DNA from: Escherichia coli
GTDB taxonomy: Bacteria > Pseudomonadota > Gammaproteobacteria > Enterobacterales > Enterobacteriaceae
Reading direction: 5' to 3' (one strand)
DNA: 64,000 nucleotides
Assembly: GCF_041248615.1 (NCBI RefSeq)
Contig: NZ_CP158426.1
The notes below the pieces were generated by a model. The model made no database searches, was not told where the DNA came from, and saw nothing but the letters and a program-made list of their open reading frames with translations. Positions 1 to 10,072 of the stretch are shown here, piece by piece. Positions within the stretch are counted from its first letter, which is position 1, and every line of letters starts with the position of its first letter. The position numbers and the translations under genes are program-made.

Positions 1-654
<654 letters not shown>

Positions 655-687
655 TTAGCGGGGGAAGCAAAATGCCTCCCCCGGTTG

Positions 688-705
688 TACTCGCTAAAGA
701 GTACG
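688..705. promoter_or_regulatory. TrpR autoregulatory operator (GTACTCGCTAAAGAGTAC palindrome) upstream of trpR
   Basis: Near-perfect inverted repeat GTACTC-N6-GAGTAC located in trpR 5' region; matches known trp-type operator half sites. Confidence 0.6.
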
Positions 706-728
706 ATAGCATATCATAAACGTGCGGA

Positions 729-2666
729 TCAGTAACGACGTCCCCATTCCGTGGCGCTCATCAATGTCGGTTTATCCCCCATGAAATAGCGGTAGTAAGC
801 GTCATAAGCCAGCACGTTCTTCACATAACCGCGCGTCTCGGAGAACGGAATACTCTCGACAAATGCCACTGCGTCGATACGCCCGGCGCTGTTGCCAAGC
901 CAGGTTCGCACCCGCCCTGGTCCGGCGTTATAAGCTGCTGAGGAGAAAATACGGTTATTACCAAACTGCTGATAAACATATTGCAGGTAACTGGTGCCAA
1001 TGTTGATGTTCGTTTCCGGATCCAGCAATTGTCCTGGGCTGCTATAACCAGGAATAGAGAACATCTTCACCGTATGGGTCGCCGTGCCCGGCATAATCTG
1101 CATCAGGCCGCTGGCCCCTACCGGCGATTTCACTTTCGGATTCCAGGCACTCTCCTGACGGGCAATCGCCATCGCATAGCTTTGCGGGATCTCCTTCCCA
1201 CTGGTGTAACGTTTGAAAAGATCGTTGTAGGCCAGCGGGAATCGTTCTTCCAGATGATCCCACAGCTTCCCGGCGATCGTTGCCTGAACGCTAAGATCCC
1301 ACCATTGGTTATTGAAAGCATACCGAGCCAGTTGCGCCTGCTCTGTTTTTGACTTGCTCTTCACCAGATTGGCCCACTCGCTACGCGCGGTGTTATCGAG
1401 ATTCCAGTACATCAACTCGCGCACGCGCGCCATCTCCGGCCCCTGAGTCAGGGCGCTGTCAACATTCTGCGGCGCTTTATCAATCTTCAGCTCATACTCT
1501 TCTCCGATGCGTTGTGCTGCAACCATCGGGTAGAAACCACGCTGTTGCATGAGTTGATGCAAAATCTCTTTCGCTTCAGCTTCACGTCCGCGTTCCAGCA
1601 GTAAATCCGCCTGCCAGTAACGCCATTCATCTTTCTCTTTCGCCTCCATCGGCAAACGCGCCAGCCAGGTATTCAGGCCGCGACGATCGCCGGTGCCAAG
1701 CGCCATTCGCACACGGCGTTCAATAAGCGAAGTAGATTGCGAACGCATAATGGCGTCATCACGCCATTTCGCCTGTTCGTCGGTGACATCGTTGCCCATC
1801 AAACGCCAGGCGACGATATCGCGCAGCTCCTGAATCTGATCTTCATTAAGCTGCTGCGCCTGGGCAAGCGACGGAATCATCAGCCGTGCATTTTCAGCAT
1901 CCTGCCGCGCCACACTGGCAAACGCCACCGCCGCCATTTGACGGGTAAAATCGGTCGCTCCGGTTGTACGCGCGAAGGTCAGTACCGTATTAGGATTGTT
2001 CGCCAGTGAAATAATTGCCGAAGCGATAGTCTGGTAATCGGCAGGCATCTGCCCTGCCAGCACTGTTACCAGGCCAGTGTTACCCGCTTTCATCGCCAGA
2101 CGGATACGCTCTAAATACGCCAGCGGATCTTGTTTACCTGACGCACGCCAGACGCTAAATAACTTGTCACAGGCGTTAGGCTGGCTCTTGCCGGTTAGCC
2201 ACAGCTCTTTCGCCCCTTGCCAGGCTTCTTCACTCTGCCCGGTGTTCCATTTTGCATAGTAGTAATTACATTGCGCTTCGGTAGTTCCGGGCTTTTCCGG
2301 GCTAAAGGCTAACAAGCCACGCCAGTCTTCACGCCGCGCCAGTTCATTGACGAAACGAGATTGCAGCGTGCGAGCGGGAGGAAGCGTGGGGTTAGCGCGA
2401 ACAAAGTTAGTGACCGTCACCGCCGGTTGATTCATCAGATCATCGGTGATCTGGCGGTATTCCAGGTAGGGATAAAGCGGATAATCTTTCAGTCCAGGCA
2501 TCATTTGTTCGACCACATCCATTTGTCGATTATCCCAGGCCTGCTTGATTTGGGCGTAGCGGCTACGCTGCTCATCCAGTGAGTCGGCTCGCGCCACGCT
2601 GCTGACCGTCAGCAGACAGACACCGGCAGCCAACAGCCGCCAGGTAACGTGTTTGGCTTTTTCCAC
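729..2666 (-). CDS. slt: Soluble lytic murein transglycosylase Slt70 (GTG start inferred; six-frame ORF extends to 2696)
   Basis: 645 aa from VEKAKHVTWRLLAAGVCLL signal peptide to C-terminal SLT domain; matches Slt as recalled. Confidence 0.93.
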   Translation of the reverse strand: MEKAKHVTWRLLAAGVCLLTVSSVARADSLDEQRSRYAQIKQAWDNRQMDVVEQMMPGLKDYPLYPYLEYRQITDDLMNQPAVTVTNFVRANPTLPPARTLQSRFVNELARREDWRGLLAFSPEKPGTTEAQCNYYYAKWNTGQSEEAWQGAKELWLTGKSQPNACDKLFSVWRASGKQDPLAYLERIRLAMKAGNTGLVTVLAGQMPADYQTIASAIISLANNPNTVLTFARTTGATDFTRQMAAVAFASVARQDAENARLMIPSLAQAQQLNEDQIQELRDIVAWRLMGNDVTDEQAKWRDDAIMRSQSTSLIERRVRMALGTGDRRGLNTWLARLPMEAKEKDEWRYWQADLLLERGREAEAKEILHQLMQQRGFYPMVAAQRIGEEYELKIDKAPQNVDSALTQGPEMARVRELMYWNLDNTARSEWANLVKSKSKTEQAQLARYAFNNQWWDLSVQATIAGKLWDHLEERFPLAYNDLFKRYTSGKEIPQSYAMAIARQESAWNPKVKSPVGASGLMQIMPGTATHTVKMFSIPGYSSPGQLLDPETNINIGTSYLQYVYQQFGNNRIFSSAAYNAGPGRVRTWLGNSAGRIDAVAFVESIPFSETRGYVKNVLAYDAYYRYFMGDKPTLMSATEWGRRY

Positions 2667-2876
2667 AAGCGCATCCTCTAAGTGTAAATACATCAATGCA
2701 GCGTCATGCCGCGTAATAGATTTATGCTAACCAGTCATTGACGTTTACGCCACGTTACGGACACTTTTTTACTTTTATCGGGAGGGTGATCGACCGGCTG
2801 GGATTAGATAAGGAAACAGGCTACACTTCGCCTTTGAAAACTCATCATCACGATAAACATAGAGGCGAAGTCCAAC

Positions 2877-4544
2877 GTGGCTCAATTCGTTTATACCATG
2901 CATCGTGTCGGCAAAGTTGTTCCGCCGAAACGTCATATTTTGAAAAACATCTCTCTGAGTTTCTTCCCTGGGGCAAAAATTGGTGTCCTGGGTCTGAACG
3001 GCGCGGGTAAGTCCACCCTGCTGCGCATTATGGCGGGCATTGATAAAGACATCGAAGGCGAAGCGCGTCCGCAACCGGATATCAAGATTGGTTATCTGCC
3101 GCAGGAACCGCAGCTGAACCCGGAACACACCGTGCGTGAGTCCATTGAAGAAGCGGTTTCTGAAGTGGTTAACGCCCTGAAACGCCTGGATGAAGTGTAT
3201 GCGCTGTACGCCGATCCGGATGCCGATTTTGACAAGCTGGCCGCTGAACAAGGCCGTCTGGAAGAGATCATTCAGGCTCACGACGGTCACAACCTGAACG
3301 TTCAGCTGGAGCGTGCAGCGGATGCGCTGCGTCTGCCGGACTGGGACGCGAAAATCGCTAACCTCTCCGGTGGTGAGCGTCGTCGCGTAGCGTTGTGCCG
3401 CCTGCTGCTGGAAAAACCAGACATGCTGCTGCTCGACGAACCGACCAACCACCTGGATGCCGAATCCGTGGCCTGGCTGGAACGCTTCCTGCACGACTTC
3501 GAGGGCACCGTGGTGGCGATTACCCACGACCGTTACTTCCTCGATAACGTTGCAGGCTGGATCCTCGAACTGGACCGCGGTGAAGGTATTCCGTGGGAAG
3601 GCAACTACTCCTCCTGGCTGGAGCAGAAAGATCAGCGCCTGGCGCAGGAAGCTTCACAAGAAGCTGCGCGTCGTAAGTCGATTGAGAAAGAGCTGGAGTG
3701 GGTACGTCAAGGTACTAAAGGCCGTCAGTCGAAAGGTAAAGCACGTCTGGCGCGTTTTGAAGAGCTGAACAGCACCGAATATCAGAAACGTAACGAAACC
3801 AACGAACTGTTTATTCCACCGGGACCGCGTCTTGGCGACAAAGTGCTGGAAGTCAGCAATCTGCGTAAATCCTATGGCGATCGTCTGCTGATTGATGACC
3901 TGAGCTTCTCGATCCCGAAAGGAGCGATCGTCGGGATCATCGGTCCGAACGGTGCGGGTAAATCGACGCTGTTCCGTATGATCTCTGGTCAGGAACAGCC
4001 GGACAGCGGCACCATCACTTTGGGTGAAACGGTGAAACTGGCATCGGTTGATCAGTTCCGTGACTCAATGGATAACAGCAAAACCGTTTGGGAAGAAGTT
4101 TCCGGCGGGCTGGATATCATGAAGATCGGCAACACCGAGATGCCAAGCCGTGCCTACGTTGGCCGCTTTAACTTTAAAGGGGTTGATCAGGGTAAACGCG
4201 TTGGCGAACTCTCCGGCGGTGAGCGCGGTCGTCTGCATCTGGCGAAGCTGCTGCAGGTTGGCGGCAACATGCTGCTGCTCGACGAACCAACCAACGACCT
4301 GGATATCGAAACCCTGCGCGCGCTGGAAAACGCCCTGCTGGAGTTCCCGGGCTGTGCGATGGTTATCTCGCACGACCGTTGGTTCCTCGACCGTATCGCC
4401 ACGCACATCCTGGACTACCAGGATGAAGGTAAAGTTGAGTTCTTCGAAGGTAACTTTACCGAGTACGAAGAGTACAAAAAACGCACGCTGGGCGCAGACG
4501 CGCTGGAGCCGAAGCGTATCAAGTACAAGCGTATTGCGAAGTAA
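2877..4544 (+). CDS. ettA: Energy-dependent translational throttle protein EttA (ABC-F ATPase)
   Basis: 555 aa, two ABC cassettes (GLNGAGKST and GPNGAGKST Walker A, LSGGE signatures). Confidence 0.95.
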   Translation: MAQFVYTMHRVGKVVPPKRHILKNISLSFFPGAKIGVLGLNGAGKSTLLRIMAGIDKDIEGEARPQPDIKIGYLPQEPQLNPEHTVRESIEEAVSEVVNALKRLDEVYALYADPDADFDKLAAEQGRLEEIIQAHDGHNLNVQLERAADALRLPDWDAKIANLSGGERRRVALCRLLLEKPDMLLLDEPTNHLDAESVAWLERFLHDFEGTVVAITHDRYFLDNVAGWILELDRGEGIPWEGNYSSWLEQKDQRLAQEASQEAARRKSIEKELEWVRQGTKGRQSKGKARLARFEELNSTEYQKRNETNELFIPPGPRLGDKVLEVSNLRKSYGDRLLIDDLSFSIPKGAIVGIIGPNGAGKSTLFRMISGQEQPDSGTITLGETVKLASVDQFRDSMDNSKTVWEEVSGGLDIMKIGNTEMPSRAYVGRFNFKGVDQGKRVGELSGGERGRLHLAKLLQVGGNMLLLDEPTNDLDIETLRALENALLEFPGCAMVISHDRWFLDRIATHILDYQDEGKVEFFEGNFTEYEEYKKRTLGADALEPKRIKYKRIAK

Positions 4545-4668
4545 TGCGTAAAATGCCGGGTGCGGCGCGCCAGCATCGCATCCGGTATTAGTTAAATGAT
4601 TAGTCCCCGGAAAAAGGCAGAATTTTCTTTAAGCGTATTAGCTCAGATGCGGACTGACACCTCAAATC

Positions 4669-4693
4669 AAGCGGGAACTCATGGTTCCCGCTT
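4669..4693. terminator. Bidirectional hairpin terminator between convergent ettA and LysR-type gene
   Basis: Perfect 10 bp stem AAGCGGGAAC/GTTCCCGCTT with 5 nt loop, followed by T-rich run. Confidence 0.55.
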
Positions 4694-4699
4694 AACGTT

Positions 4700-5587
4700 T
4701 TATTCACCGCGCAGGATCTGGCGGAAATGGGAAACCAGCGGACGTTGGTTGGCTTTATGCCAGGCTGCCCATAATTGCGTTGAATAATTCATCCACGGCA
4801 ATTCACGTAATACCACCCCTTCCGGCGCATTATGACGCAGACTATGTTGAATTAAGGCCAGACCTAATCCCGCAGCGACCAAACCTAATGCCGTGAGGGG
4901 TTCACCCGCTTCCAGGCGAATATCAGGATTAAACCCGGCGTTAACACAGGCGGCGACAAAATGATCGCGAGAATGCGCATCGTCGTTATGAATCACCGCA
5001 ATCCACTGCTCATCACCAAGTTGTGACGCGACAAGGTTTTCCTCCTGCGCCAGAGGATGATTTTGCGGTAAGGCCAACAACATTCGATCATCCAGAACCT
5101 GAATATATTCCAGATCCTGCTCGCTGTCGGTGGGCGGCGTATCGACCAGAGAAAAATCGAGACTGCGCTGGCGCAGGCCTTCAATCTGGGTCGCCGGTGG
5201 TTGGCTGTAAAGTGCGATATGCACATTCGGACGCGATACACGTAACGTACGTAGCGCCGTAGAAAGCACACCGGAATGCATGGCGTTTTCGATATAGCCA
5301 ATACACAAGCCACCATCTTCCCCCCGTCCCAGGCGTTTGCCTAACGACTCCAGGCGGTTGGCGTGTGTCAGCAACGAACGTGTTTCGGCAAGGAATGTCT
5401 GTCCATCAGCGGTCAGGCGAATGCGCTGCTGATTACGCTCAAACAGCGTCAGCCCCAGCCGTTCTTCCAGTTGTGCAATCTGGCGGCTCAGCGGTGATTG
5501 CGAGATATGTAATCGCTCGGCTGCGCGTCCCACGTGCTCTTCTTCTGCGACCACCACGAAGTACTTCAGTTGGCGTAAATCAATCAT
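4700..5587 (-). CDS. LysR-family transcriptional regulator (start at MIDLRQLKYF; ORF track extends to 5680)
   Basis: N-terminal LysR HTH (QLKYFVVVAEEEHVGRAAERLHISQSPLSRQI) plus substrate-binding domain; divergent from reductase operon. Confidence 0.8.
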   Translation of the reverse strand: MIDLRQLKYFVVVAEEEHVGRAAERLHISQSPLSRQIAQLEERLGLTLFERNQQRIRLTADGQTFLAETRSLLTHANRLESLGKRLGRGEDGGLCIGYIENAMHSGVLSTALRTLRVSRPNVHIALYSQPPATQIEGLRQRSLDFSLVDTPPTDSEQDLEYIQVLDDRMLLALPQNHPLAQEENLVASQLGDEQWIAVIHNDDAHSRDHFVAACVNAGFNPDIRLEAGEPLTALGLVAAGLGLALIQHSLRHNAPEGVVLRELPWMNYSTQLWAAWHKANQRPLVSHFRQILRGE

Positions 5588-5720
5588 GTTAGACCTCAAA
5601 GGACTTAAGTCAGACGAATTATGTCCTATCAAGTCACAACCTCGCAAGGTATTGTGATCCACGTCACAGGGCGATAGCAAAAAAACGCCCTAACCCAAAC
5701 CGAATAATTGAGGACATCTT

Positions 5721-6731
5721 ATGAGCATCAAAAATTTACTTCCCGGCAAAATTGGCTTAGGTGGCGCACCACTCGGCAACATGTTCCGTGCCATTCCGGA
5801 AGACGAGGCCCACGCCACCGTGAGCGAAGCCTGGAACCTGGGCGTGCGTTACTTTGATACCGCGCCGCTGTACGGCTCTGGCCTTTCTGAAATCCGCATG
5901 GGTGAAGCGCTGTCTCAGTATCCACGCGATGAATACGTTCTGAGCAGCAAAGTCGGTCGCATCATGCTGGACGAAATGGAAGATCCGGCAAAACGTGATT
6001 TCGGTGAAAAAGGTGGCCTGTTCGAACACGGCCTGAAAAACAAAATTCTGAATGACTACTCTGCTGACGCCACGCTGCGCTCGATTGAAGACAGCCTGAA
6101 ACGCCTGAAAACAGACCGTCTGGATATTGTCTGGATCCATGACCCGGCGCAGGACTTCTACGGTGACAGCTGGCTGGAACAGTTCAACATTGCCCGTACC
6201 GGTGCGTTTCGTGCGCTGACGCGTTTGCGTGACGAAGGTGTGATTAAAGCCTGGGGACTGGGTGTGAATCGCGTCGAACCTTGCGAACTGACGCTGGCGC
6301 TGGACGAACCGAAGCCGGATGCGTTCCTGCTGGCGGGGCGTTATTCCCTGCTGGATCACGAACGTGCGCTGCAACGCCTGATGCCAGAAGCACTGGAACA
6401 GAACGTGGATATCGTTGTGGGCGGTCCGTACAGCTCTGGCGTACTGGCAGGCGGCGAGCACTTTGAATATCAGATAGCTTCTGCGGCCATCCAGCAGAAA
6501 GTGGCGCAAATTAACACCATTGCCACACGTTTCAATGTGAACGTTAAAGCAGCTGCGCTGCAGTTCGCGCTGGCAAACCCGGCCGTTGCGGCGGTTATTC
6601 CTGGCTCCAGCCGTCCTGGCCGTATGGCAGAAGATCTGGCTGCACTGAATGCGCCTGTTCCGGCTGAATTCTGGGCAGAAATGCGCCGTCAAAATCTGGT
6701 TGCGGAAAACGCTCCGCTGCCGACCCGTTAA
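5721..6731 (+). CDS. Aldo-keto reductase family oxidoreductase
   Basis: 336 aa, AKR hallmarks (GLGGAPLGNMF, YFDTAPLYG, IPGSSRP); good RBS. Confidence 0.85.
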   Translation: MSIKNLLPGKIGLGGAPLGNMFRAIPEDEAHATVSEAWNLGVRYFDTAPLYGSGLSEIRMGEALSQYPRDEYVLSSKVGRIMLDEMEDPAKRDFGEKGGLFEHGLKNKILNDYSADATLRSIEDSLKRLKTDRLDIVWIHDPAQDFYGDSWLEQFNIARTGAFRALTRLRDEGVIKAWGLGVNRVEPCELTLALDEPKPDAFLLAGRYSLLDHERALQRLMPEALEQNVDIVVGGPYSSGVLAGGEHFEYQIASAAIQQKVAQINTIATRFNVNVKAAALQFALANPAVAAVIPGSSRPGRMAEDLAALNAPVPAEFWAEMRRQNLVAENAPLPTR

Positions 6732-6750
6732 TCAACCTGGTGAGAAAACG

Positions 6751-7548
6751 ATGAAACTGGATCTGACAGGTAAAGTCGCGGTGGTCAGCGGCTCAACCTC
6801 CGGCATTGGGCAGGGTATCGCCGCCGGACTGGCAAAAGCAGGCGCAACGGTGGTTGTCGTCGGCCGTAAACAGCGCGGCGTTGATGACGCCATGGCAGCG
6901 ATTGCGACACAAACTCCCACGGCGTCACTGCGTGGCGTGGTGGCCGATCTCAGCACCGAAGACGGCGTGGCTGCGCTGATCGCTGCAGTCCCAACGGCTG
7001 ATGTGCTGGTCAATAATCTGGGCATTTTCAACGATAAAGATTTCTTTAGCGTTCCGGATGATGAGTGGATGCAATTCTATAACGTCAACGTCCTTTCCGG
7101 CGTTCGTCTGGCGCGTCACTATGCGCCAGGCATGACGGAACAGGGCTGGGGGCGGATTATCTTTGTCTCGTCCGAATCCGGCGTGGCAATCCCTGGCGAC
7201 ATGATCAACTACGGCGTCACCAAAGCCGCGAATCTGGCGGTCTCTCATGGTCTGGCGAAACGACTGGCGGGGACCGGTGTGACCGTCAACGCCATTCTGC
7301 CAGGGCCAACCTTTACCGATGGCCTGAAAGAGATGCTGGCGGATGCCGCTGCACAATCGGGACGCAGTGCGCGTGAACAGGCCGATGAGTTTGTTAAAAC
7401 CTCGCGTCCGAGCTCCATCATCCAGCGTGCGGCGGATGTGGAAGAAGTGGCGAATCTGGCGGTTTATCTCGCGTCACCGCTTTCCTCGGCAACCACAGGG
7501 GCAGCCCTGCGCGTCGATGGCGGCGTCGTCGACACCCTGACAATGTAA
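6751..7548 (+). CDS. Short-chain dehydrogenase/reductase (SDR) family oxidoreductase
   Basis: Start MKLDLTGKVAVVSGSTSGIG (Rossmann TGxxxGxG); 265 aa; immediately downstream of AKR gene. Confidence 0.85.
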   Translation: MKLDLTGKVAVVSGSTSGIGQGIAAGLAKAGATVVVVGRKQRGVDDAMAAIATQTPTASLRGVVADLSTEDGVAALIAAVPTADVLVNNLGIFNDKDFFSVPDDEWMQFYNVNVLSGVRLARHYAPGMTEQGWGRIIFVSSESGVAIPGDMINYGVTKAANLAVSHGLAKRLAGTGVTVNAILPGPTFTDGLKEMLADAAAQSGRSAREQADEFVKTSRPSSIIQRAADVEEVANLAVYLASPLSSATTGAALRVDGGVVDTLTM

Positions 7549-7573
7549 CCCTATAAATTAAGAGAAAATTATC

Positions 7574-7990
7574 ATGGCTAAAACAACTGTATCGATCGAA
7601 ATTCCGGCTTCTGCCGACGCCGTATGGCAATTGATGGGCGGCTTTGATGCGCTGCCAGACTGGCTGCCGTTCATCCCGAAAAGCGTAGTGACAGAAGGCG
7701 GTCGCGTTCGTTCGCTGACAACCTCTGACGGCGGCACTGTGGTTGAACGTCTGGAAGCGTTTGATAACCGTCAACGCAGTTATACCTATTCCATTATTCA
7801 GGCACCGTTCCCGGTGGTGGATTACCTCTCCACCATTACCGTTCATGAAACCGCCGACAGCCAGGTTTCCCGTGTGGAATGGTTCGGTGAATTCACCCCG
7901 GTGAATGTGACGAACGAAGAGGCCGAAGCGCTGTTTACCGGCATCTATCGGGATGGTCTCAAGGCGCTGAAGGACAACTTTGTTGCCTGA
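7574..7990 (+). CDS. SRPBCC (Bet v1-like / polyketide cyclase-like) family protein
   Basis: 138 aa ORF third in the AKR-SDR operon; family assignment by general sequence character only. Confidence 0.6.
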   Translation: MAKTTVSIEIPASADAVWQLMGGFDALPDWLPFIPKSVVTEGGRVRSLTTSDGGTVVERLEAFDNRQRSYTYSIIQAPFPVVDYLSTITVHETADSQVSRVEWFGEFTPVNVTNEEAEALFTGIYRDGLKALKDNFVA

Positions 7991-8147
7991 TGCGATCGAC
8001 AGGCGTCGGAACGTCCGGCGTCTGATTATTAACAAAAACAGAATAGTCTATTGTCATTTGTATCATTTATGTTATCAGGCAGCAGGCGTATTCTCTTCCC
8101 ATCGCGTTAATAAACGCCAAACAATTAAGACACTCTGGAATATAAAC

Positions 8148-8360
8148 ATGAAAACGATCATCGCAATTTTTACAGCTTCTCTTTTCTCTGTCGCGGCGTT
8201 TAACGCATCGGCGCAAAGCGTAACAGCAACCGGTACAACACTGGATTCTGCGGAAGCAGTTATTGCGCAGAAAGCGAAAGAGATGAACGCCTCTGAATAC
8301 AAAATCACCAGCGCTCGCATGGGCAATACCGTCACCATGAGTGCCGAACTGTACAAATAA
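8148..8360 (+). CDS. DUF1471 (YdgH/BhsA/McbA-like) small periplasmic protein
   Basis: 70 aa with signal peptide MKTIIAIFTASLFSVAAFNASA and typical C-terminal SARMGNTVTMSAELYK. Confidence 0.7.
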   Translation: MKTIIAIFTASLFSVAAFNASAQSVTATGTTLDSAEAVIAQKAKEMNASEYKITSARMGNTVTMSAELYK

Positions 8361-8408
8361 CCGCGCAAGGGACCCATTACGTAATTTGCTAAATATGCGC
8401 TGAATGCG

Positions 8409-8594
8409 TTGCCATTAAAAAACCGTATTGTAATGCCACCGATGACACGTTCCCGTGCGGGTGACGTTACGACTGACATGATGGCGGACTATTACGCGCA
8501 GCGCGCCAGTGCAGGACTTATCATCAGCGAAGGTACGCAAATCAGCAGAAGCGCTGCGCATAATTTTCCACGGCACGCTGATTTACTCCGGTAA
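8409..8594 (+). pseudogene. Remnant of old-yellow-enzyme/NemA-like alkene reductase (5' fragment only)
   Basis: PLKNRIVMPPMTRSRAGD...YYAQRASAGLIISEGTQIS resembles OYE N-terminus, then diverges and stops after 61 codons. Confidence 0.5.
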
Positions 8595-8819
8595 ATACAC
8601 CAAAGCGCGCGCCGAAGCAGACTGTCAGATTTGATTGCATTCTGGCTACGCAACCGGTCGGTTGGAGTATGAAGTTGCTCACGAATAGCCTTAGCATCCG
8701 CAATTTCGTAGCGGGTCACCCGTACAGGTTCTTTCTAATCTCGACAGTCTCTTCCAGAGAGGTTTTCAACTCATCAAAAAACTTATTTTATACCTCGCCT
8801 TTGAGCCGTTTCGTCACGG

Positions 8820-10052
8820 TTATCTCTGCTCCCCCATCATCTCCCGCACTAGCTCCACGCAGCGCAGGAAACGGCTGTCATAATCGTCCTCTTCAACCCG
8901 CACGAATTCGATATTGTTCTCTTCCAGCATCTCCACCAGCAAGTTCTGGAACTCTTTGCGATCCACCGAACTGCCGAGGCTGCGTAAACCATCCGCCACC
9001 CACGGCGTGTTGTTCTCCAGCAGGATCACCAGATCGAAACGGTATTCATCAATCAGCGCCTGCACGAACGGATGCTCACGCCCTTCGTACTTTTTGCAGA
9101 ACGCCTGGGTAGTGACAAAATCAGTGTCAATAAACGCCACTTTATTGGCGTATTTCACTGCAAAATCAATGTATTGAGCGTGGCCCAGCGCGATTTTATC
9201 GTAGTCGGAATACTGCAATGCAATCTCATCACCGCCGAGGTGTGAAAAGACATAATCGCGACCATATTCCCACGCACTGGTGGTATTGAAGATATTGGCA
9301 AGTTTGTTTACCAGGGTGGATTTACCGCTCGACTCGCCGCCAAGGATCGCCACGGTACGCACAAAGAACGGCTTCACTTCCGTAGGAATATATTCCCAGT
9401 AGCGGAACGGGTTTTCGCGGATCTGCGCACCGCTGATACTCATAAAGGTACGTTTCGGATCGACCAGTACCGTCTCGATCCCCAGATGTTCCATATACTG
9501 TGGCGCATCGGCTTCTTCCGAGGTGTAGATCAGGTCCGGCTGGATCCCCTTTTCAGCCATAAACTTTTTGATGCCGTTGCTCCACACATCCCAGCCGTGC
9601 GGATATGGCTCCATGCCCTCTTCGTTGAAAGCATGAATACGGATATTCTTCTGATATTTAAAGGTTTGCAATAACCAGCGCAGACGATCCGGCACCGTGG
9701 GCTGCTGCGACATGGCGCTGTCTTCAAACAACGCGCGGTCGCGGGTATCGTCAAAACCCATAATGATATGCAGCTCATCAACCTGGCTACAGGCGCGCTG
9801 GATAAGGTAGATATGTCCGGTATGCAGCGGGTAGAACTTACCGAATACGACACCAATGGTTTTCTTCTGCCGGGGAAATTCAAGCCCCAAAAAACGGTGC
9901 AATGCCTCCAGCTTTTGCGCGCTGGGGCTTTTAATTTTGGCATTCAGTAACTGGCTTAAATACCCTTTGGTCATACCGCTGGCATCAGCGACCTGCTGTA
10001 GCGTGCAGCCCTGTTGCTTGATGGCAGTTTTCAGGTAATCAAATGACGACAT
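8820..10052 (-). CDS. nadR: NadR: NMN adenylyltransferase / ribosylnicotinamide kinase / repressor
   Basis: 410 aa from MSSFDYLKTAIKQQG; HTH, NMNAT (GKFYPLHTGH) and kinase P-loop (GGESSGKST). Confidence 0.95.
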   Translation of the reverse strand: MSSFDYLKTAIKQQGCTLQQVADASGMTKGYLSQLLNAKIKSPSAQKLEALHRFLGLEFPRQKKTIGVVFGKFYPLHTGHIYLIQRACSQVDELHIIMGFDDTRDRALFEDSAMSQQPTVPDRLRWLLQTFKYQKNIRIHAFNEEGMEPYPHGWDVWSNGIKKFMAEKGIQPDLIYTSEEADAPQYMEHLGIETVLVDPKRTFMSISGAQIRENPFRYWEYIPTEVKPFFVRTVAILGGESSGKSTLVNKLANIFNTTSAWEYGRDYVFSHLGGDEIALQYSDYDKIALGHAQYIDFAVKYANKVAFIDTDFVTTQAFCKKYEGREHPFVQALIDEYRFDLVILLENNTPWVADGLRSLGSSVDRKEFQNLLVEMLEENNIEFVRVEEDDYDSRFLRCVELVREMMGEQR

Positions 10053-10072
10053 ATCTCCCTCCGTATCTCTCA

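Follow-up and report, generated by a model that had tools for sequence, protein, structure and literature searches.

A horizontally acquired LysR–oxidoreductase islet inserted in nadS between ettA and nadR of Escherichia coli

What lies between the core genes ettA and nadR of Escherichia coli when the two are more than 4 kb apart, where did it come from, and what might it do? We have addressed these questions in a 64,000-nt window of E. coli DNA, which is 100% identical to NZ_OW967178.1 and was compared with the RefSeq annotation of that record. In this window ettA (2877–4544, plus strand) and nadR (8820–10052, minus strand), both assigned from their open reading frames (ORFs) and from that annotation, converge on a spacer of 4,275 bp (4545–8819). 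A first-pass annotation had described the spacer as a strain-specific islet, with a LysR regulator divergent from an operon for an aldo/keto reductase (AKR), a short-chain dehydrogenase/reductase (SDR) and an SRPBCC protein, together with a DUF1471 gene and a fragment of an old yellow enzyme (OYE) gene. All these genes are confirmed by Pfam, NCBIfam and RefSeq, and the islet is indeed accessory, but it is lineage-specific rather than strain-specific, being carried by 482 of 5,426 complete E. coli genomes. Our results show that the islet is real, horizontally acquired and partly decayed, an element of an ordinary kind that is already annotated in RefSeq. The explanation that we favour overall, and consider probable, is that a cassette of foreign origin came to lie in the antitoxin gene nadS, where it may work as an inducible conversion module.

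The ettA–nadR gap is polymorphic: E. coli has at least four alleles of it, which were counted here among the same 5,426 genomes. In about 430 genomes (e.g. O25b:H4) the gap is 120 bp and holds only repetitive extragenic palindromic (REP) elements; in about 3,800 (e.g. K-12 and O157:H7) it is 307 bp and holds a truncated nadS plus REP elements; in 674 (e.g. KKo009 and ABU 83972) it is 765 bp, with an intact nadS and a ParE/RelE toxin gene; and in the 482 carriers (8.9%) the oxidoreductase islet fills a gap of 4.3 kb, or 5.0 kb in the O166:H15 variant. The K-12 gap had been given as shorter than 100 bp; its actual 307 bp, also given in a paper on toxin–antitoxin (TA) systems (PMC7232551), contain a 55-aa nadS gene besides the REP elements. 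According to a transposon-reporter study, nadS is expressed in K-12 (PMC12350097). In both short alleles (120 and 307 bp), nadS sequence has seemingly been replaced by REP elements. Strain WB61 was considered as a nadS-intact, toxin-less intermediate; its gap also has the K-12 length of 307 bp, so it is not treated as a separate allele.

How is the islet placed among these alleles? It is an insertion into nadS, not ancestral DNA. This gene encodes the antitoxin of the ParE/RelE–NadS pair, which is intact in the 674 genomes mentioned above, and both of its ends are still present in the window. On the left, positions 4545–4632 align with the TA-bearing allele as far as the last 12 or so codons of nadS and are ancestral DNA (in blastn, window 4300–4632 matches positions 2756–3099 of the KKo009 locus, L003). 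The codons concerned (4596–4632, minus strand), identified by blastn and alignment, carry an 11-bp deletion over the stop codon and read TLKENSAFFRG where the intact allele has TIKENPAFFREL. On the right, the first 40 or so codons are found at 8673–8816 (minus strand), with the start codon changed from ATG to ATA and with deletions of 1 bp and 10 bp; in blastn this remnant matches KKo009 L003 3216–3370 and the DH1 locus (L002 3001–3147), and in some RefSeq records it bears the name of a partial 'NadS family protein'. The islet has taken the place of about 116 bp of nadS that separate these two pieces in the intact gene. The window and K-12 share exactly the junction left by deletion of the toxin gene, so the toxin was lost before the islet was inserted. 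With no toxin gene in the window and with nadS split, startless and frameshifted, the site no longer encodes a type II TA system of the ParE/RelE–NadS type. The K-12 allele itself may descend from an islet-bearing or from a nadS-intact ancestor, both being compatible with the data.

Did the islet enter E. coli once or repeatedly? Carriers share their junctions and include O145 and O166:H15 strains, and in two divergent ones that we fetched, O145 RM9154-C1 and O166:H15, it lies between ettA and nadR. Of the 482 carriers, 481 match window positions 7574–8683, which span the junction of a deletion in the OYE gene and the right junction of the islet, over at least 80% of their length; this speaks for a single origin of the E. 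coli islet.

Copies outside E. coli are found at other loci. When one genome per bacterial species was scanned with the AKR protein as query, the only other Escherichia representatives with the cassette were E69, where it lies between yhiN and a ProA-like anti-phage gene, and E. whittamii, where it lies between glyS and ghrB. Window positions 4669–8546 are 97.6% identical to the E69 copy, and 8547–8617 match the E69 OYE gene 686 bp further on. The core genes that flank the cassette in E69 are about 92% identical to those of all E. coli genomes. Between the window and E69, the rate of synonymous substitution (dS) is 0.06–0.13 for the five intact islet genes and 0.20–0.41 for five core genes that adjoin the E69 copy; being 3–5 times lower in the islet than in the core, it indicates that the cassette was exchanged after the two lineages had split. 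In the same comparison, the ratio of non-synonymous to synonymous rates (dN/dS) lies at 0.03–0.09 for the five islet genes, which indicates that these genes are kept by strong purifying selection. Beside the E69 cassette, a 1,154-aa ORF (L005 11523–14987) abuts it and matches the C-terminal part of ProA (1,173 bits, cut-off 1,500), and the E69 locus next to yhiN may be a variable defence or accessory hotspot.

Beyond Escherichia, the core made of the lysR, AKR, SDR and SRPBCC genes is found in Trabulsiella, Yokenella, Yersinia, Raoultella, Serratia, Providencia and Ewingella, in an Acinetobacter metagenome-assembled genome (MAG) and in more than 60 Pseudomonas species. Its neighbours differ again: a malic-enzyme gene on one side and a 3-hydroxybenzoate monooxygenase gene on the other in Trabulsiella, and the formate-hydrogenlyase activator gene, downstream of which it lies, in Yokenella. 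Among the 80 best species loci, lysR was present in 77 and the SDR gene in 71 (79 and 76 loci, respectively, having enough flank), and the SRPBCC gene in 74; just 9 of these loci had the DUF1471 gene, and just 3 an intact OYE gene. Genes for a sensor kinase, a response regulator and a membrane protein that lie near the cassette in Pseudomonas were judged to reflect local synteny and not to belong to it.

Where exactly does the foreign DNA begin and end? The first-pass annotation had taken a perfect hairpin terminator at 4669–4693 as the left edge of the islet. The hairpin is perfect, with an 11-bp stem and a 3-nt loop, and lies on the plus strand, 6 bp past the stop codon of lysR; it is neither the edge of the gap nor the terminator of ettA, and marks instead the left end of the imported cassette. 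A separate REP-like hairpin at 4552–4589 (plus strand; fold −26.9 kcal/mol, z −3.7) resembles a terminator for ettA; it is conserved in the TA-bearing allele, shares its first half with K-12, and is ancestral, ettA's own and outside the islet. Between the nadS remnant and the cassette, a filler of 36 bp (4633–4668) matched neither the K-12 and TA alleles nor the flanks of the cassette in E69 and E. whittamii. The homology of these two genomes to the window starts exactly at the 4669–4693 hairpin, which is conserved in both with one substitution in the loop, and in Trabulsiella its place is taken by another hairpin that is followed by a T-run. These comparisons indicate that the hairpin belongs to the cassette and marks its left end. 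It folds at −17.4 kcal/mol (z = −4.2), none of 200 shuffled sequences folding as well, and scans as terminator-like on the plus strand, with the tail AACGTTTTAT. The T-run is on the plus strand, and in the window, as in E69, E. whittamii and Trabulsiella, the next gene upstream is convergent with lysR; the likeliest role of the hairpin is therefore to stop read-through into lysR from that upstream gene; possibly it terminates in both directions.

The right end is less regular. The OYE remnant is followed by a filler of 55 bp (8618–8672), and the same sequence is found in the O166:H15 allele after a gene for a GNAT acetyltransferase. That allele has 58 more bp of the 3΄ end of the OYE gene plus the GNAT gene; there, the window allele has lost 727 bp, with CGAAGC as microhomology, so that it is best read as a microhomology deletion of the longer O166:H15 variant. 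In O166:H15 strain JNE070796 the GNAT N-acetyltransferase gene (L086 6044–6769) has a low GC content and lies between the OYE and nadS remnants, and the islet variant of H124 carries a DUF2846 gene.

No mobility machinery of its own was recognised in the islet. No tRNA gene was detected in positions 1–14000, only short chance matches to att-like or terminal repeats were found at the junctions, and no ORF codes for an integrase or transposase; the islet thus lacks the mobility genes, tRNA or att target and flanking repeats of a classical genomic island or transposon, and its GC content (about 0.45–0.62) does not stand out from that of its flanks. When plasmids were searched for a transfer vehicle, no AKR match exceeded 90% identity, and the 15 best matches listed included no plasmid of E. 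coli; AKR genes of this kind are found on megaplasmids, on chromids and on a 331-kb Ewingella plasmid. We propose that the imported DNA would comprise about 4669–8617, with a short filler on each side, and would have landed inside nadS after the loss of the toxin gene. It would be a degenerate copy of a cassette of about 4.8 kb, in which the hairpin is followed by lysR on one strand and by the AKR-SDR-SRPBCC, DUF1471 and OYE genes on the other, and which may move between chromosomal sites and between species although it has no mobility genes. The five genes that are intact in E. coli would be maintained there by purifying selection, and the OYE gene, as well as the GNAT gene in most islet carriers, would have decayed.

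What do the islet genes encode? The regulator (4700–5587, minus strand, 295 aa) has the domains of a LysR-type transcriptional regulator (LTTR) in Pfam, HTH_1 at residues 4–63 (2e-24) and LysR_substrate at residues 88–293 (7e-39), and its gene shows a dN/dS of 0.03 against E69. No NCBIfam equivalog was matched at its cut-off, so that orthology to AlsR, HcaR, OxyR or another named LTTR is not supported; the best scores were 223 bits for AlsR (cut-off 430) and 207 for PRK09986 (cut-off 290). As in other LTTR systems, the target operon is divergent and a dyad lies in the shared control region (5588–5720, between lysR and the AKR gene). This imperfect dyad, GGACTTAAG-N8-ATTATGTCC at 5601–5626, is a candidate LysR binding site; of 79 orthologous intergenic regions, which range from Enterobacterales to Pseudomonas, 70 show its pattern. 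A promoter-like site for lysR lies at 5647–5618.

The first gene of the operon (5721–6731, plus strand) codes for an AKR of 336 aa, which matches Aldo_ket_red in Pfam (2.7e-44, residues 10–322). In its translation, aligned to L-galactose dehydrogenases, the catalytic tetrad of the superfamily is complete (D46-Y51-K77-H140), and its dN/dS against E69 is 0.06. It has more than 7,000 close homologues, none of them characterised. A 1.4-kb contig binned as the MAG of a 'Collinsella sp.' (JAIJJM010000794.1, 1–1397) encodes the 5΄ end of the islet lysR (100% amino acid identity), the same control region and the AKR (99.7% amino acid identity); it is probably a mis-binned fragment of E. coli.

The second gene (6751–7548, plus strand) encodes a classical SDR of 265 aa (Pfam adh_short_C2, 1.2e-44), in whose translation the motifs SGSTSGIG, NNLG, SSESG and YGVTK are all found, with a basic GRKQRG segment after strand 2 that is typical of NADP(H) users. 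Its near-ortholog 8G9M, from A. baumannii (E 1e-137), has been solved, and the natural substrate of that protein is not known according to its authors (PMC10889901); 3T4X, from a Bacillus structural genomics project, is a clear homologue (3e-70). The third gene (7574–7990, plus strand) encodes a ligand-binding SRPBCC protein of 138 aa that matches Polyketide_cyc2 over its full length (PF10604, 1.7e-30) and has the helix-grip fold, its PDB matches 3CNW ('XoxI', 4e-52) and 3F08 (1e-50) being Bacillus structural-genomics proteins of no assigned function. A hairpin with a 10-bp stem after the SRPBCC stop codon (8001–8023, plus strand) is a weak candidate for the operon terminator, the z value of its 76-nt context being only −1.5. 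An Rfam scan of 4300–9100 gave only a chance match to a snoRNA (E 0.46). Antisense ORFs of 311 aa (5757–6692, minus strand) and 205 aa (7418–8035, minus strand) overlap the AKR and SRPBCC genes; RefSeq has no gene at either, and they are probably by-products of the codon bias of the coding strand.

Two further genes follow on the plus strand. The DUF1471 gene (8148–8360; dN/dS 0.05) codes for a small secreted protein of 70 aa of the YdgH/BhsA/McbA family (Pfam YdgH_BhsA-like, 2.5e-11), with an N-terminal segment that resembles a signal peptide and with weak NCBIfam matches to BhsA, RclB and YhcN. The NemA-like OYE gene (8379–8617) is a pseudogene, as seen by tblastn with the intact E69 protein, by blastn, and by Pfam and NCBIfam matches to the N-terminus of NemA; from about 8385 it covers only positions 11–65 of the 342 of the Oxidored_FMN profile (4e-10). 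What is left of the 365-aa protein are residues ~3–58 and ~287–310, in two frames, with the start codon lost and the 3΄ end missing, and hence no complete flavin mononucleotide-binding TIM barrel of about 365 aa. The internal deletion of 686 bp, with its junction at 8546/8547, is common to all E. coli carriers. In E69 the gene is intact (365 aa, L005 9659–10756), and in E. whittamii it bears a different deletion, of 638 bp (L006 9656–10116). The two independent deletions hint that Escherichia can do without this gene or bears a cost from it.

What could such a set of genes do? We suggest that the LysR protein would bind the conserved dyad at 5601–5626 and, on sensing a small-molecule inducer, would activate the AKR-SDR-SRPBCC operon; the two NAD(P)H-dependent oxidoreductases would then convert a small, probably hydrophobic carbonyl or electrophile, and the SRPBCC protein would bind or present the substrate or product. 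From family chemistry and gene neighbourhood, we tentatively regard the module as an inducible detoxification or conversion system and not a growth pathway, a view that may well need revision and that we hold with less assurance than the horizontal origin of the islet. The earlier reading of the islet as an aldehyde or quinone detoxification module appears plausible in this light. It is supported by the gene content of the islet, by the linkage of an intact NemA-like OYE gene and/or a DUF1471 (BhsA-family) gene to the cassette in several Enterobacterales, and by the NADPH-type motif of the SDR. It is also supported by more distant neighbourhoods: on a Priestia plasmid the AKR gene follows genes for an OYE and a DJ-1/PfpI protein, and in Streptomyces the unit made of the lysR, AKR and SRPBCC genes adjoins msrA. 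On the Priestia, Streptomyces and Caballeronia plasmids, the AKR keeps an identity of 70–73% across phyla. No transporter or downstream catabolic gene was found at any locus examined.

Several observations weigh against this reading or against parts of it. The OYE gene, which would be the best marker of detoxification and is the element most specific for quinones or enals, has been inactivated twice independently in Escherichia, and the cassette as it occurs in Pseudomonas lacks both OYE and DUF1471. Among the PDB and database matches, no member of the AKR, SDR or SRPBCC groups has a known substrate; among solved structures, NAD-dependent L-galactose dehydrogenases come nearest to the AKR, automated names point to oxidation of sugar-like compounds, and the nearest characterised relatives of the SDR act on sorbose and 3-hydroxybutyrate. 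As for the history, differences of up to about 3% separate copies of the islet within E. coli, so the acquisition is old; some carriers are further rearranged, as shown by split matches, and the islet may have been lost in some lineages after it was acquired.

The alternative that survives best is that the islet is a small catabolic or oxidative unit for the use of a carbon source, with the AKR as an NAD+-dependent aldose 1-dehydrogenase, of the D-threo-aldose, L-fucose or L-galactose type, and with the SDR as a dehydrogenase of polyols or hydroxy acids. This would agree with plant L-galactose dehydrogenases being the best PDB matches of the AKR (E 3e-29), with the name 'D-threo-aldose 1-dehydrogenase' that JGI and NCBI pipelines give it where they do not use a generic one, and with the likeness of the SDR to NADPH-sorbose reductase and 3-hydroxybutyrate dehydrogenases. 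However, the AKR is only modestly similar to L-galactose dehydrogenases and its names have been transferred automatically, no gene for a transporter, lactonase, dehydratase, kinase or aldolase accompanies the cassette at the loci examined, the invariant partner is an SRPBCC protein that binds hydrophobic ligands, and the basic pocket of the SDR suggests NADPH, that is, the reductive direction. We therefore consider the catabolic unit unlikely.

Could the AKR and SRPBCC proteins, with or without the SDR, make or modify a specific small hydrophobic metabolite or signal, with the SRPBCC protein acting as a cyclase- or dehydratase-like catalyst or as a carrier? The conservation of the AKR across phyla, its proteins in Streptomyces, Bacillus/Priestia and Burkholderia being 70–75% identical to that of E. 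coli, would fit such a role, as would the recurrence in Actinobacteria and Betaproteobacteria of a lysR gene divergent from AKR and SRPBCC genes without the SDR (on Streptomyces and Caballeronia megaplasmids) and the presence of polyketide cyclases and hormone receptors in the SRPBCC superfamily. Against it, no biosynthetic partner genes (synthases, ligases, exporters) are found, a patchy and horizontally mobile distribution fits niche stress genes better, and no experimental hint points that way, so that we regard this role as improbable. Two candidates from the literature, 'cluster 17' of P. donghuensis and the 'polyketide cyclase' XAC1230 of Xanthomonas, have unrelated architectures.

It is likewise doubtful that the islet is a decaying and functionally inert remnant in E. 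coli. The OYE gene is dead (start codon lost, 686 bp deleted, 3΄ end truncated), the GNAT gene has been deleted from the window allele, and some carriers show the further rearrangements mentioned above; yet the five other genes have kept their full length and match their orthologues from one end to the other, their dN/dS is low, the dyad in the control region is intact, and 482 genomes, with differences of up to 3%, have retained the block. Least of all do we credit the scenario, raised with the first-pass annotation, that the interval is ancestral Escherichia DNA from which K-12 and most strains derive by deletion: a divergence of up to 3%, comparable to deep divergence within the species, does argue against a recent arrival, K-12 does share the toxin-deletion junction with the islet allele, and its REP elements do stand exactly at the islet site, so that deletion from an islet-bearing ancestor is possible in principle, but an interrupted gene is a derived state, and with the islet interrupting a nadS that is intact elsewhere, in only 8.9% of the genomes, with cassettes at different loci in the only two other Escherichia representatives that have one and with a dS to E69 well below that of core genes, this scenario is therefore rejected.

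What does an acquired islet in nadS mean beyond this locus? For the most part the finding clarifies an ordinary piece of the E. coli accessory genome, and the islet shows that a small cassette without mobility genes is able to replace a decaying TA locus. There is also some chance, though we would not count on it, that the LysR/AKR/SRPBCC unit, to which an SDR has been added in Gammaproteobacteria, represents an undescribed and very widespread pathway for one specific, common small molecule. We raise this because the AKR is 70–75% identical from E. coli to Streptomyces and Bacillus, and because the architecture and the dyad are kept from Enterobacterales to Pseudomonas; if it were true, E. coli carriers would offer a convenient genetic system for a new triad of inducer, enzyme and binding protein. 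The wider value is modest: the core is conserved across many Proteobacteria and the AKR-SRPBCC pair reaches Actinobacteria, solved structures are at hand with a substrate yet to be assigned, and E. coli strains that carry the islet naturally are an easy route to assigning the function.

How does the islet compare with known systems? A literature search for an island at ettA/nadR turned up only the TA-system paper already cited, and one by the RefSeq accessions of the islet proteins gave no papers. That paper places the ParE/RelE–NadS islet (parE-3/yiaG-2, 'TA30') of CFT073, NRG857c and 83972 in the same nadR–ettA gap (PMC7232551). The antitoxin gene of TA30 is the target of the insertion described here and its ends flank the window islet; unlike TA30, the window has only dead nadS fragments and no toxin gene, and its cargo is metabolic. 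At the protein level, the AKR shares a GxGxxPLGNxF N-terminal motif and the D-Y-K-H tetrad with the L-galactose dehydrogenase/D-threo-aldose 1-dehydrogenase branch (8SCC, 7SMI, 7EZI), although the similarity is partial and moderate, being confined to two stretches, and the islet enzyme is bacterial and linked in an operon to SDR and SRPBCC genes. For the SDR and SRPBCC proteins, the homologues 8G9M, 3T4X, 3CNW and 3F08 offer structures only. The electrophile-response modules of E. coli K-12 that join a regulator to reductases include nemR-nemA-gloA and yqhC-yqhD-dkgA. The regulator of the islet differs from theirs in being of the LysR type and not of the TetR or AraC type, its enzymes are not orthologues of DkgA, YqhD or NemA (NCBIfam equivalog scores are far below cut-off), and it has an invariant SRPBCC partner and an OYE that is a dead fragment. 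The islet nevertheless resembles these modules in that a gene for a dedicated transcription factor adjoins those of NAD(P)H-dependent enzymes that reduce carbonyls or enals (AKR, OYE), in a small, transporter-less and stress-linked arrangement.

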